Both the position numbers and the translations under genes were made by a program. A stretch of 32,000 bases of DNA from Candidatus Heimdallarchaeota archaeon (GTDB lineage: Archaea > Asgardarchaeota > Heimdallarchaeia > Heimdallarchaeales > Kariarchaeaceae), in contig JASBSB010000007.1 in the NCBI GenBank assembly GCA_030149205.1, positions 240,001-272,000 of the forward strand, given 5' to 3'. Positions 6,257 to 21,968 of this stretch are shown here, one piece after another. Every line of letters starts with the position of its first letter. Position 1 is the stretch's first letter. The notes beneath the pieces were generated by a model that did no database searches, was not told the DNA's origin, and saw only the letters and a program-made list of their open reading frames with translations.

Positions 6257-7099
6257 ATGTTTGATTTCATTAGTTTCATATCTTCGCAATTTCCTTATCC
6301 GGTTAGTGAAAATTTAATAAATTTTAGAATTTTAATCTATTCTGGATCATTATTTTTTATTTCAATAATTTTGTTGATATTTTATGTTAAAACAAAAAGA
6401 GATGTATCAAATCCATTTATGAAAAAGCTTTCTCGCAGCTATTGGAATTCCCTCGTTGGATTAGGATTGATTAATTTAAATTTCTTTTTGACTTCTCTTT
6501 CTTTGCTTTTAACTCACGGTAAAATCATGATCTTTGGCAATGAAAAGTCTTTTTTCTATTTACTTGGAAACCTTATGTTTTTTTTTGGAATTATGAAAGT
6601 CTCTTTAAACATTATATCATTCACAAAATTTGGTAGAAAATTATATATTCTTTTTTCTTATTCTGTTATAGCAATTGGAATACTAGGTTTTATGATGATT
6701 TTTTCAGAAATATACTTGCATAACTCAAACAAATATCTGATTACTGGGAATTTTGTCCTTAAAATTTTTGGTATGTTGTATCTTCTTCTTCTATTAGTTA
6801 GCTTGGTTGCCCTAACCTTAGAAAGGAAAAACAACCCGAGTAAAATAGAATTAATGAGGATTAATTTTCTTTCTTTAATTCTCCTCTTACAGACAAGTCA
6901 ATTAATTCTTCGTCTATTAATACTGTTTTTTCAAAATAACCAGTTTGTCAGTGTCTATTTGATTTTTTTCATTTCCCCTATTTTAGATTTTGCTGTGATA
7001 ATAGTCTGTGCGGTTCTATTTTATTGGTCAATATATACCCCCACTTGGGTCATGATTAAATTCTCTGTGATTCCAAAAGGTTATCAATCAGTTATCTAA
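6257..7099 (+). CDS. Uncharacterised membrane protein with about 7 TM helices
   Basis: 280 aa with about seven hydrophobic segments counted by eye; no recognisable catalytic motif. Confidence 0.75.
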   Translation: MFDFISFISSQFPYPVSENLINFRILIYSGSLFFISIILLIFYVKTKRDVSNPFMKKLSRSYWNSLVGLGLINLNFFLTSLSLLLTHGKIMIFGNEKSFFYLLGNLMFFFGIMKVSLNIISFTKFGRKLYILFSYSVIAIGILGFMMIFSEIYLHNSNKYLITGNFVLKIFGMLYLLLLLVSLVALTLERKNNPSKIELMRINFLSLILLLQTSQLILRLLILFFQNNQFVSVYLIFFISPILDFAVIIVCAVLFYWSIYTPTWVMIKFSVIPKGYQSVI

Positions 7100-7695
7100 A
7101 CCTTTAACACGTGTCCCCCATCTCTTAAGATTATATTTTTGTTTCCACTCAAATCAACAATCGTGGATGGTTTTCCACTCAATTCATAATCCCATTTTAT
7201 GAGCACACCAATCTTCTCAATTAATTTCCAGTTTAAATTTTCCACAACAGTTGGCACCTTTTCACCTGAAATATTTGCACTTGTAGTAACTATTGGATGT
7301 CCTAACTTTCTTATAATTTGTGAAATTTCCCCGGCTATTATCCGAATTCCTATAGTATTCTGTTCCACTTCTAATTTTTCTTTTCCTTTTTCTGTTAGAT
7401 TAACTACAAATGTAAAGGGTCCCGGTAGATTTTTTTTTAATATTTCATATGCTTTCGAATCTAGATTTGTATATTCGGTAATTTGCTTTAACGTCCCAAA
7501 TGCCGCACTTAGAAATTTAGACCCATCTCTTTTTTTTAGTAAATTTATTTTCCAACATATCTCTTTTTTATAAATTCCTCCTATACCTGCAACAGTGTCT
7601 GTGGGGTAGATCATTAGCTCCCCCTCTTTTAACAAATCTACTATTTCATCCTTCTTTTCTTCTGACATCTTTTCAAACTTATATTGTTTTAGCAT
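7096..7695 (-). CDS. sua5: Threonylcarbamoyl-AMP synthase, short YrdC/TsaC-type Sua5
   Basis: IYPTDTV, KKRD, LPGPFT and TTSANISG motifs; 199 aa with no C-terminal SUA5 domain; SD GAGGT upstream. Confidence 0.92.
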   Translation of the reverse strand: MLKQYKFEKMSEEKKDEIVDLLKEGELMIYPTDTVAGIGGIYKKEICWKINLLKKRDGSKFLSAAFGTLKQITEYTNLDSKAYEILKKNLPGPFTFVVNLTEKGKEKLEVEQNTIGIRIIAGEISQIIRKLGHPIVTTSANISGEKVPTVVENLNWKLIEKIGVLIKWDYELSGKPSTIVDLSGNKNIILRDGGHVLKV

Positions 7696-7698
7696 TTT

Positions 7699-7771
7699 AT
7701 AACCTCAGAACTCAAATAGCTCGTCATCAACATTAAATTGTTTCAGTAAGGCAAGATTCATCATCAGTTAT
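7699..7771 (-). ncRNA. Box C/D guide sRNA
   Basis: Minus strand reads ATAACT-G-ATGATGA (C)-ATCTTGCCTTA-CTGA (D')-12 nt-TTGATGA (C')-CGAGCTATTTGAGTT-CTGA (D)-GGTTAT. All four boxes are near consensus and the ends form a 6-bp stem in K-turn geometry. Confidence 0.85.
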
Positions 7772-7906
7772 CCTCTTTTTTATTGTGGTAATTTAAATTT
7801 TCCCTAACTAATTTTTTGATTTTTTTTGAAACATTCCTTATTTTTGTTTGAAAATATTAAAATTAGATTAACAGTTATTACCATATGTACATTGGTGCTT
7901 AATTAA

Positions 7907-15464: not shown

Positions 15465-18400
15465 GTCTGCCAAACGGCAATTGGTGGATGCCTCGGCTGG
15501 TTAACCGATGAAGGGCGTGGCAAGCTGCGAAATGCGTAGGGTAGGTGCAGGCAACCTTCGATCCTACGATCCCCTAATGAGAATCTCTTGTACATTCAAC
15601 ATGTGTACAAAACCCGAAAGGGTAGGGAACCCACGGAACGAAAACATTCAAGTACGTGGAGGAAAAGAAAGCAATAGCTATTTCCTTAGTAATGGCGAAT
15701 AAAAGGGAAACAGGTCAAACCGAATGCCTTTGTGAAAACAAAGGTACATGTGGTGTTGTGGACCAAAATAAAGGTGTAAAAGGCTAATCTGAAGTAGACT
15801 GGAACGTCTCGCAAGATAGGGTGAAAGCCCCGTAAGAGTAAACCTTACATCTGTTTGGGATCCTGACTAGGGCGGATTGGATGTTCCGTCCAAACTCGAG
15901 AACTAACTCGAAAACCTAAATATTAAACCAGACCGATAGCAAACTAGTAATGTGAATAAAAGGTGAAAAGTGGCGGTAAAACGCTTATGAAAAGTGCCTG
16001 AAACCAATTGTCTAAATAGTGTAATAGTATGTAAGGAATTACGCTTCATGAATCCAAATTTGGCGACAAATAGTCGAGAATGAAGAGAGACCAGTACTAT
16101 TGCGTCAGTCTTGAAACACTGGCCAGGGAGTTTATTTGAGTGGTGAGGCTAAGGTGATATTGTAACCGTAGGGAAACCAATCAGCCCGCAGCAATTGCAA
16201 GGGGCAACGTGTGAAAGCGCGTGAAATCACTCGAATAAGATGCGAAAGGTGCCGATCTATGCGTGACCAGGTTGAAGTCGTGGGAAACTGCGATGGAGGA
16301 CCGAAGAGGTATTGATATACAACTCATTCTTCTGAGTTGCGTATAGTGGTCAAAGGCCAATCGAGGCGCCTGATAGCACATTCATGCAGAAGTGGAGCCG
16401 CAGTCCAGCGTAGCACGAGTATGAACCGTTGGTAGAGTACAGAAAGTGTTGGAATGGGGAGTAAAATCCTCGCCGCACCATCTAACTCCGAATGACGTTT
16501 CTACTTAGACTGCTGCAGTTGGGTGTGTCGCCGTAAGGGTGGCAACCGAGAAGCGAATAAGCTAGACTTGGGTTAAGGGCCCCAAATGTTGATTAAGTGT
16601 AAAAAGCGAAGGACGTCGTATCGCAAAGACAATGAGGTGGTTGGCTTAGAAGTAGCAATCCACTAACAAAAGTGTAACAACTTACTCATCGAGCGGTACG
16701 GCTCTGAAAATGGACGGGGCTAAAATCAACTCCCGATACCCAAGGGCACTATCTTCGTATAGTGATCCGGTATGCATGCGATTGGCGAGGATAGAAGTGG
16801 GTTAGTGATAACCTGTGGACCTCGTTAATGTGTAGATCCTGGTAGTAGTAGGCAGATTTATGGGTGAGAATCCCATAGGTCGAAAAGGCTAGGGTTCCTG
16901 AACAATGTACATCAGTTCAGGGTTAGTCGATCCTAAGAGTAACCTTAATACGGTCAACTCAAAAGGGAAACAGGTTAATATTCCTGTACCACGTGTTAAA
17001 ACGGCAACGATAGAATAAGATCAGACGCTTGTGGATAGGCGATCTTAGTTACTAAGTTAAGTGTATAACTCCGACGAGTAGTGTTGCACTGAGAATCGGA
17101 AGAAATCACAAATAGGAGCCGCCATGGTTCTATCGTTAATTTCCAAAAGCCCATGAAAATGATCTTATTTATTATAGCACGTGTTCGTACCGAAAACCGA
17201 CACGGGTGTCCTTAGGCTGAAAAAGCTAAGACCTTTTGGAGTAATCTAGGCAAGGGAATTCGGCAAAATAGATGGGTAACCAAGGGATAACCATTGCCTT
17301 TAGCTGTTCACGCGGCCGAAGGTGTCACTAACAAAGGGATCCCGACTGTTTAACAAAAACATAGCAAACTGCGAGGGCGAAAGCCTGTGTATAGTTTGTG
17401 TATCCTGCTCAGTGCTCGTAAGTCAAATCCCCGTTCAAGGGGGCTAAGCTCGGGTTAACAGCGGGAGTAACCATGACTCTCTTAAGGTAGGCAAATGCCT
17501 AGTCGGATAATTACCGACGTCCATGAAGGGACCAACGAGGATCCCACTGTCCCTGCCTAGAATCCAGTGAACCTGCGATCCGGCGAACAGACCGGATAGC
17601 CCAGTTGGGAAGAGAAGACCCTGAGAGCTTTACTACAGCTTCCAGCTGTTTACTTGGTCACCATACAGAGCGTAGTCAGGAGCGTCGAACCAGAATCTCC
17701 GGGTTCTGGGAATGCGATAATGGAACACTGACTATGGTGATTGAGCAAACTTACCCGTTGCGACGGGGACACCTGGTGGTGGGTAGTTTTGCTGGGGCGG
17801 CAAACCTCTGATAAAGAAACAGAGGTGCCCAAAGGTCAGCTCAGGAGGGACAGAAATCCTCCGTAGAGTGCAAGGGCATAAGCTGGCTTTACCGTGAATG
17901 TACCAATAGCGTTCGCGGTTACGAAAGTAGGGCCTAGCGATCCATCCGATTGTCCTTAGTAGACGCGGGTGGTGACAGAAAAGTTACCTCAGGGGTAACA
18001 GAGTTGTCGTGCGTTAGAGTTCCCAATCACTTTGGAATTCTAAATTAATTCTTATTGAACCACACTTCACACATGTTGTAAAGTAATTTATAGGGTCTTC
18101 TTCAGTCCACGATCTTAATAGAATAACCCATATACTATTCGATGATTAAGATTTGGCCTGAACTCTAGCTTTCCTTAAAAAGTAGCTGTAAGAATCAAAG
18201 TGATGAACACATTGACCGCACGGCTTGCTTCCTCGATGTCGGCTCTTCCTCGTTTGGTGTTGCATAAGGCACCAGGAATAGGGTTGTTCGCCCGTTAAAA
18301 GGGAACGTGAGCTGGGTTCAGACCGTTGTGAGACAGGTTGGTTTCTATCTAACTGGGCTGTCGGGTAAGTGTAAGTAAAGTGCCATCAGTACGAGAGGAA

Positions 18401-21844: not shown

Positions 21845-21958
21845 GCGGGGGTCGCCCAGTCTGGCCAACGGCGTTAGGTTGAGGGCCTAATCTCATAGGA
21901 GTTCAGGGGTTCAAAATCCTGCACAGTTGTGTGTATGATGAAAATCCCCTCTCCCGCA
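21845..21958 (+). tRNA. tRNA-Leu (anticodon GAG) with long variable arm and a T-loop intron; CCA not encoded
   Basis: Acceptor GCGGGGG/CTCCCGC; anticodon stem TTAGG/CCTAA with loop TTGAGGG; variable arm CTC-ATAG-GAG; T-stem AGGGG/CCCCT. Confidence 0.93.
21916..21944 (+). other. 29-nt BHB tRNA intron at position 59/60
   Basis: TTCA(21910-13) pairs with TGAA(21939-42); bulges AAA and AAT; intron hairpin TGCACA/TGTGTA; excision restores the T-loop TTCAAAT. Confidence 0.88.
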
Positions 21959-21968
21959 TCTATAGAAA

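Follow-up and report, generated by a model that had tools for sequence, protein, structure and literature searches.

A box C/D sRNA abutting tsaC/sua5 in a Heimdallarchaeota archaeon: member of a conserved family probably directed at tRNA precursors

Results

The sRNA and Its Overlap with the Start of tsaC/sua5

We analyzed a stretch of 32,000 nucleotides (the window) from a metagenome-assembled genome of a Candidatus Heimdallarchaeota archaeon of the Kariarchaeaceae (NCBI GenBank assembly GCA_030149205.1, contig JASBSB010000007.1, positions 240,001 to 272,000). Direct reading of the minus strand reveals a complete box C/D small RNA (sRNA) at 7771–7699, which is followed by tsaC/sua5, a gene for the synthesis of the tRNA modification N6-threonylcarbamoyladenosine (t6A). 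The features of the locus, in the order in which they are met on the minus strand, are as follows.

7791–7804, minus strand: element GGGAAAATTTAAAT, similar to a B recognition element (BRE) and TATA box, about 20–33 nt upstream of the sRNA 5′ stem
7766–7771, minus strand: 5′ arm of the closing (kink-turn [K-turn] C) stem, ATAACT, pairing with 7704–7699
7758–7764, minus strand: C box AUGAUGA, invariant or nearly so across the alignment
7747–7757, minus strand: D′ guide ATCTTGCCTTA, 11 nt
7743–7746, minus strand: D′ box CUGA
7721–7730, minus strand: C′ box, with the overlapping readings UUGAUGA (7730–7724) or AUGACGA (7727–7721)
7709–7720, minus strand: D guide GCTATTTGAGTT, 12 nt, with the perfect target AACUCAAAUAGC
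7705–7708, minus strand: D box CUGA, invariant in a five-sequence alignment and near-invariant in all orthologs (CAGA and CGGA variants)
7702–7706, minus strand: Shine-Dalgarno (SD) sequence GAGGU of tsaC/sua5, in the D box and stem, complementary to the 16S rRNA 3′ end GGATCACCTCCT, 6 nt before the ATG
7699–7704, minus strand: 3′ arm of the closing stem, GGTTAT, pairing with 7771–7766
7096–7695, minus strand: tsaC/sua5, 199 amino acids, YrdC domain only (Sua5/YciO/YrdC-domain match)

From 5′ to 3′ the order is ATAACT, a single G, the C box, an 11-nt spacer, the D′ box, a loop of 12–15 nt (as compared with 3–8 nt in copies from the same genus), the C′ box, a further spacer, the D box, GGTTAT, AAA, and the ATG. 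The C′ reading AUGACGA aligns with the AUGAUGA of the same-genus copies and yields a canonical D spacer of 12 nt. The K-turn has standard geometry, its bulge being the G-A-U that precedes the GA of the C box, and the closing stem, from U7766·G7704 to A7771–U7699, begins right after the A of the D box. It follows that the GAGGU is made up of the last two bases of the D box, which are sheared-pair bases, and the first three bases of the stem. Only the AAA separates the end of the stem from the ATG at 7695. At the level of the DNA sequence, the geometry is that of an L7Ae/K-turn operator, in which a K-turn overlaps or flanks an SD, and it would hold for an mRNA that includes the C-box strand.

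An earlier reading of the window, made from its letters alone (the sequence-only reading), had proposed a box C/D sRNA with C, D′, C′, and D boxes and a 6-bp ATAACT/GGTTAT stem, and had placed the SD within the D box and 3′ stem arm and the sua5 ATG 3 nt past the stem. Our reading of the sequence agrees with these placements, and the sRNA itself is further borne out by the controls for chance and the orthologs described below. Terminal and internal boxes, guides of about 12 nt (11 for D′ and 12 for D), and a covarying closing stem, all as expected of a box C/D sRNA, are present. As to transcription, we infer that the motif at 7804–7791 is a BRE/TATA promoter; a motif of the type GGGAAA(A/G)T(A/T)AAA is found in the window and, about as far upstream, in orthologs of one family of the order (f2). 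Genes for fibrillarin (E = 1.2e-74) and Nop5 (E = 6.7e-51) are adjacent to each other on contig C2 of the genome.

A Family of sRNAs Found across the Order

A strict regular expression for the four boxes had a single match in the 3.3-Mb genome, at the site of the sRNA (7771–7699), and none in the reversed genome or in 10 block-shuffled genomes; from base composition, about 0.003 matches are expected. About 15 Rfam C/D families match 7703–7768 of the minus strand, every one below threshold. The top scores are those of sR41 (25.9 bits; threshold 54) and sR-tMet (21.6 bits; gathering score 50), and with no family reaching its gathering score at the sRNA, the sRNA is not a member of any curated C/D family in Rfam. 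Folding of the RNA alone gave no stable fold (z = +0.78) and did not predict the closing stem, as is usual for K-turns, and we did not use this result as evidence for or against the sRNA.

Comparison with relatives by BLAST gave partial matches that turned out to be canonical C/D sRNAs in four genomes: G001 and G003, which belong to the same genus as the present genome (G000), and G012 and G032. A covariance model made from five copies of the sRNA found a match in 40 of the 47 genomes of the order, and exactly one match in 33 of these. We then examined the closing stem in 30 copies (25 of them distinct), using an alignment fitted to the covariance model. Double-sided changes occur at all six base pairs among the 25 distinct orthologs. 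Moreover, 82.9% of the closing-stem cells are paired, as compared with 22%–56% when the 3′ partner is slid, and none of 500 shuffles reached the observed values. Sequence conservation in the sRNA tracks RNA features rather than codons. From these comparisons of sequence, we consider it probable that 7771–7699 is a functional box C/D sRNA gene of a single-copy family that extends across the order.

Two observations on related sRNAs may be added. In the ortholog of G006 (L126, G006:C335:51717–51818, minus strand), the C′ box and D guide are duplicated in tandem, with two copies of GTATTTTGAGTA. Outside the window, the present genome has a second box C/D sRNA (G000:C2:495833–495903, plus strand) with a CCCC/GGGG closing stem, the C box GAUGAUGA, a degenerate C′ box (AUGAGGA), and the sequence TTTAAAT about 30 nt upstream. 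It illustrates the under-detection of C/D sRNAs here by strict patterns.

The D′ Guide Is Complementary to an Intron of Pre-tRNA-Met

Nucleotides 2–10 of the D′ guide form nine perfect base pairs with AAGGCAAGA, which is located in the anticodon-region intron of the elongator pre-tRNA-Met of the same genome (G000:C8:~142485–142610). The expected number of occurrences of this 9-mer per 126-nt pre-tRNA is 7e-4. The gene for this tRNA-Met(CAU) (locus L096, G000:C8:142485–142610, plus strand) has introns of ~32 nt in the anticodon loop and ~16 nt in the T-loop; it was missed by aragorn and is not among the matches listed of the Rfam tRNA scan.

Nine genomes, which represent six genera or more, have matches of 7–13 bp between D′ guide and Met intron, and the guide sequences involved differ from one another. 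The D′ guides of relatives (TCTAGCCCTT, TTTAGCCTT, TCTAGCCAA, and AGGGCCTT) each fit the pre-tRNA-Met intron of their own genome. Thus, the guide TTTAGCCTT of G008 pairs with the intron sequence AAGGCTAAAT over 10 bp, the guide TCTAGCCA of G004 pairs with TGGCTAGAT over 9 bp, and the guide of G010 pairs with ATTGGCTGGAT over 11 bp, including one G-U pair; the match is 8 bp in G013, 7 bp in G001, and 10–13 bp in the genomes of f2. In f2, the perfect D′ target AAGGGCTAGA is enriched relative to a reversed-pattern control and sits within introns of both pre-tRNA-Met(CAU) and pre-tRNA-Leu(UAA).

When eight guides were compared with eight precursors, own-genome combinations paired over 7–11 positions (up to 13 within f2), whereas unrelated combinations mostly paired over 4–6. 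The own-genome combination was best or tied for best except in the rows for G001 and G012, where the precursor of a neighbor from the same group scored higher. The switch from CCTT/AAGG to CCAAT/ATTGG between lineages is compensatory. This covariation supports the pairing of D′ guide and intron itself.

What the pairing would accomplish may be read in two ways. Docking through the D′ guide could serve as an anchor, which would allow a D guide of imperfect fit to direct methylation at position 34 in more than one pre-tRNA. The D guide of f2 is perfect for Leu(CAA), has two central mismatches for Met, and forms a G-U pair at position 34 for Leu(UAA); it is the imperfect substrates, Met and Leu(UAA), that have an intronic D′ site, and Leu(CAA) is without one. 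An exception to this pattern is G008, in which the Leu(CAA) intron too has a D′ site. The sRNA could instead be a chaperone that, by masking the intron site, would favor a splicing-competent fold of pre-tRNA-Met. The CAAGA found on the 5′ strand of the anticodon stem recurs at the intron site in the present genome; in the predicted minimum-energy fold it is the intron copy, not the exon copy, that pairs with the 3′ strand of that stem. The likeness of the intron site to the anticodon stem is weaker or absent in other lineages.

A separate feature of the Met introns at L097–L100, L128, L077, L083, and L085 is a shared C-box-like motif, GAGGAG[A/C]AA, GAUGAGCAA or GGAUGAGAAA, immediately ahead of the 3′ exon. 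This motif may be a strand of a K-turn or K-loop or part of the bulge-helix-bulge.

The D Guide Is of a Type That in Relatives Fits Pre-tRNA-Leu(CAA)

The base at the N+5 position, that is, the candidate for methylation, in the target AACUCAAAUAGC of the D guide GCTATTTGAGTT is the second C, which corresponds to C34 of a CAA anticodon loop. This genus and G007 have in common the D guide ATTTGAGTT, with the target AACUCAAAU. In G015, the D guide pairs perfectly with A31–A38 of pre-tRNA-Leu(CAA) plus the first two bases of the intron, with C34 at N+5. C34 of pre-tRNA-Leu(CAA) is likewise at N+5 in G016 (11 nt), G004 (11 nt), and G008 (9 nt). As with the D′ guide, the intron bases covary with the D guide, being TAT in G004 (where the guide has ATA) and TC in G015 and G016.

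The tRNA-Leu genes found in the present genome are those for UAA, CAG, UAG, and GAG. All four carry a T-loop intron (C4:455848, plus strand; C8:147221, minus strand; C2:~294950, minus strand; and window 21845–21960, plus strand).

Other candidate targets of the D guide were rejected. Exact matches to its 12-mer target at C7:445362 and C8:343402 are not tRNA-like. The T-loop sequence TTCAAAT, in which the guide would direct methylation of C56 (Cm56), pairs through six Watson-Crick and three G-U pairs; we discarded this target because the genome encodes Trm56 and because the guides of relatives do not fit it.

The Juxtaposition with tsaC/sua5 Is Confined to One Genome

The open reading frame (ORF) at 7096–7695 is the sole PF01300 gene in the genome, and its product scores 137.7 bits with TIGR00057, the equivalog model for L-threonylcarbamoyladenylate synthase, above the cut-off of 123.2 bits. 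The name sua5 is acceptable, the protein being of the short TsaC type without a SUA5 domain. The nearest relatives of this 199-residue TsaC (31%–40% identity) are in other genera; the same-genus genomes have, on G001:C6 and G003:C72, Sua5 proteins of ~350 residues with 27%–31% identity to it. This pattern suggests replacement by a paralog or transfer. A scan of metagenomes for a closer homolog gave a single match, with 28% identity.

The sequence-only reading had proposed a dual-function guide and leader that couples small nucleolar ribonucleoprotein (snoRNP) levels to t6A synthesis. C/D boxes are absent from the 200 nt upstream of 15 sua5/yrdC homologs of relatives (a 16th, in G006, is cut at a contig end), and among 30 orthologs of the sRNA an ORF on the same strand starts within 3 nt in one, that of the present genome. 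The other orthologs are followed by T-runs or by no ORF within 79–300 nt, save that of G013; a run of at least five T's lies within ~50 nt of the 3′ end in 14 of these 29, and no T-run separates the sRNA from tsaC in the present genome. An arrangement conserved together with the regulated gene, as for a K-turn operator, was thus not found: neither the 15 upstream regions nor the 29 other orthologs hold an sRNA–sua5 fusion. With the fusion missing from all relatives examined, there is no indication that a guide/leader has been selected for, and the proposed coupling is not supported.

The sRNA copies of G001 and G003 stand alone. That of G001 adjoins the ortholog of a 280-residue membrane protein whose gene, in the window, is on the other side of tsaC; the divergent neighbor of the G003 copy resembles the 280-residue protein in size, the one property compared. 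The G001 neighborhood and the stand-alone copies of the genus point to a local rearrangement in the present genome. In G013, the ortholog (L067:640–722) lies 10–19 nt before an unrelated ORF for an iron-containing alcohol dehydrogenase that has an SD of its own, AGGTGA. Here, too, the sRNA is likely to serve as an mRNA leader, which makes G013 a second case, independent of that at tsaC.

Alternative Explanations

If the juxtaposition is nonetheless functional, the sRNA could double as the leader of tsaC/sua5, with L7Ae or the small ribonucleoprotein (sRNP) on the terminal K-turn repressing translation and thereby coupling the supply of snoRNP proteins to t6A synthesis. The location of the SD inside the D box and closing stem, with the ATG 3 nt beyond, is in keeping with this model, as are the single-copy state of tsaC, the position of the BRE/TATA-like motif for a start at the sRNA 5′ end, and the lack of a T-run between the two genes, unlike in 14 of the 29 other orthologs; L7Ae bound to a K-turn that masks an SD in a 5′ untranslated region (UTR) represses translation in Sulfolobus and in reporters (PMC5539422). 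On the other hand, the fusion is seen in this genome only (15 upstream regions, 30 orthologs, and an order of 47 genomes), metagenomes gave no closer relative, and the RNA by itself shows no stable fold (z = +0.78). Also, constitutive assembly of the C/D sRNP would mean near-permanent repression rather than a graded switch, and a TATA-like element within the sRNA could bypass the K-turn. We regard the leader model as improbable. That same element, AATTTAAT (7739–7732), is the basis for supposing instead that the sRNA and tsaC are two independent, overlapping units. In such an arrangement, tsaC would be transcribed from within the enlarged D′–C′ loop as an mRNA without a C box and hence without a K-turn. 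The element is ~40 nt upstream of the ATG and resembles the upstream promoter motif; a start near 7713–7708 would give a leader of 13–18 nt that bears the SD; and the loop that holds it, at 12–15 nt, exceeds the 3–8 nt of the same-genus copies. However, similar ATTTAATG loops are present in orthologs that have no downstream gene, and the likeness to a TATA box may be accidental. We judge independent transcription to be unlikely. Finally, an upstream ORF of 19 codons (ATG at 7764 to TGA at 7705), which is open, in frame with tsaC, and preceded by GAGG 8 nt upstream, might encode a leader peptide or, by read-through of the TGA, an N-terminal extension. Its ATGs and its TGA are, however, the C and D boxes, the N-terminus of TsaC is already of normal length, and the frame is lost in orthologs (that of G001 runs for six codons and ends at the D′ box). 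We rejected this possibility, whose chance of being right is negligible, on the grounds that the frame is not conserved.

A different kind of alternative concerns the targets of the guides. The sequence-only reading had pointed to 23S rRNA, and its pairings are arithmetically correct: the D′ guide pairs with 17483–17491 over 9 bp, including two G-U pairs, with G17487 at N+5, and the D guide pairs perfectly with 16956–16963 over 8 bp, with C16960 at N+5. Were these the targets, the sRNA would be an rRNA guide that methylates G17487 and C16960. Both pairings are, however, shorter or weaker than those with the tRNA partners, and matches to 23S and 16S rRNA were moderate at best. The proposed 23S stretch, in the region of helices 69–71, is expected to be invariant in these lineages and hence could not track the changes in the D′ guide; the differing D′ guides of relatives fit their own pre-tRNA-Met introns and not this stretch (as judged from its expected invariance, the 23S sequences of relatives not having been read). 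An rRNA target would then not follow the guide changes in relatives as the pre-tRNA partners do, and we consider it very improbable.

Discussion

The explanation that we consider likely as a whole is that the sRNA is a conserved C/D guide directed at tRNA precursors and that its abutment with tsaC is a lineage-specific by-product of the mobility of the sRNA gene rather than a conserved regulatory device. Assembled with L7Ae, Nop5, and fibrillarin, the sRNA would act on tRNA precursors, its D′ guide pairing with a site wholly within the intron of elongator pre-tRNA-Met and its D guide being of the type that in relatives spans the exon-intron junction of pre-tRNA-Leu(CAA), where the wobble base C34 would be 2′-O-methylated. 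A local rearrangement in this one genome would have placed the sole tsaC/sua5 gene 3 nt downstream. Transcription would start ~25 nt past the TATA-like box, at the sRNA 5′ end, and because no T-run terminator lies between the two genes, polymerase probably reads through from the sRNA promoter into tsaC. Judging from the geometry of the K-turn, the SD and the start region would be hidden once the sRNP had assembled on such a transcript. Such occlusion by L7Ae or the sRNP is physically plausible; given that the RNA alone has no stable fold, any occlusion would depend on protein. Sources of TsaC could then be transcripts on which no sRNP assembles, a processed, near-leaderless mRNA starting 3 nt before the AUG, or transcription from the TATA-like element in the D′–C′ loop, this last route being speculative in view of the similar loops of orthologs without a downstream gene. 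Since the arrangement is not conserved, we hold an evolved regulatory role for the overlap to be unlikely.

Several findings weigh against this explanation. A gene for tRNA-Leu(CAA) was found neither in this assembly, which is 93.5% complete, nor in G001 or G003, in searches that employed aragorn, the Rfam tRNA model, BLAST with tRNA halves (from relatives and from the genome itself), regular expressions for stem-loops and D-arms, and pattern scans (G000–G003 and family-wide). The 12-mer of the D guide fits no tRNA or rRNA found in the genome, and the loop of the local tRNA-Met pairs with it over only A31–A35 (about 6 bp). At the N+5 position of the D′ guide is a G of the intron, 12–14 nt beyond the 5′ splice site; splicing removes this base, and its methylation as such therefore seems pointless. 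As to the overlap, t6A is normally essential, and with tsaC in single copy an arrangement that buries its SD might be under selection, which leaves room for a real, young regulatory role.

A reading that goes further would have the D′ guide dock, as an anchor or chaperone, on the covarying site of 7–13 nt in the pre-tRNA-Met intron (in some lineages also in Leu(UAA) or Leu(CAA) introns), in which case archaeal tRNA introns would take part in recognition by a guide ribonucleoprotein (RNP) acting in trans; separately, the same sRNP would, in this genome, gate translation of the sole t6A synthase gene. We put this forward tentatively, as a possibility that falls somewhat short of being probable.

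Among known systems, the closest in function is sR-tMet of Haloferax volcanii (RF02163; Joardar et al. 2011), which, as cited in PMC6601510 and PMC4033218, is a C/D RNA for 2′-O-methylation at position 34 of an intron-containing tRNA precursor. The present sRNA is similarly an archaeal C/D RNA that would act on such precursors, and sR-tMet has a sub-threshold Rfam match at the same coordinates. With 21.6 bits against a gathering score of 50, however, the sRNA is not a member of that family. Its Met-pairing guide (D′) is wholly intronic, 12–14 nt past the splice site, and has an intronic N+5 base, and its position-34 guide (D) is tuned to tRNA-Leu(CAA), features that set it apart from sR-tMet as the pairing of the latter has reportedly been described. 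Elsewhere, protein enzymes (TrmL and Trm7/FTSJ1) carry out the methylation of position 34 in tRNA-Leu(CAA). In humans, the C/D guides SNORD97 and SCARNA97 direct the formation of Cm34 in elongator tRNA-Met (Vitali and Kiss 2019, PMC6601510). RNA-guided methylation of the wobble base therefore spans archaea and eukaryotes, and an Asgard representative would fit between them, although the human targets are intron-less, the match between D guide and tRNA-Met is imperfect here, and the likeness is one of function rather than of demonstrated sequence homology. A further tie between an intron and anticodon-arm methylation, according to the reviews in PMC11408192 and PMC4033218, is the C/D guide in the intron of pre-tRNA-Trp (Clouet-d'Orval et al. 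2001). In that case the intron is the guide, whereas here it would be the pairing partner of a free-standing guide.

The position of the sRNA gene, too, has precedents. In Pyrobaculum, C/D sRNA genes include sense sRNAs at the 5′ ends of ORFs, shift in position within a family, and are cotranscribed with mRNAs, and the suggestion has been made that, where a 5′ sRNA of this kind is left unexcised, L7Ae drawn to it could block initiation (Lui et al. 2018, PMC6009581). Sulfolobus sRNAs with "hijacked" promoters are cited in PMC5539422. The present sRNA has in common with those of Pyrobaculum its place at the 5′ end of an ORF and a mobile gene position; it differs in that 5′ overlaps there usually destroy the overlapping guide, whereas here, in an Asgard lineage, both guides are intact and it is the D box and stem that overlap the SD rather than the coding sequence. 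Many archaea share the autoregulatory K-turn in the 5′ UTR of l7ae, and what it regulates are proteins of the sRNP itself (Daume et al. 2017, PMC5539422). As in that operator, a K-turn here is at or overlaps an SD in a 5′ leader, where bound L7Ae would be expected to mask the SD; unlike it, the element here is a complete guide sRNA, occurs before an unrelated gene in one genome, and is a candidate operator. We conclude that the sRNA represents an Asgard family outside the curated families, with a wholly intronic guide partner and a single-genome SD overlap as variant features. We found no published description of Asgard box C/D guide RNAs, the literature not having been queried for that specifically.

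Whether initiation is blocked when the leader of an mRNA carries a full sRNP is a question for which the overlap with the SD of tsaC provides a natural test case, although the regulatory evidence from the overlap rests on one metagenome-assembled genome. For the order as a whole, the sRNA represents a single-copy Asgard guide family that would be aimed at wobble position 34. The covariation of guide and intron suggests that some tRNA introns of archaea are retained for their recognition by a guide RNP, and it thereby bears on the question of what tRNA introns are for.

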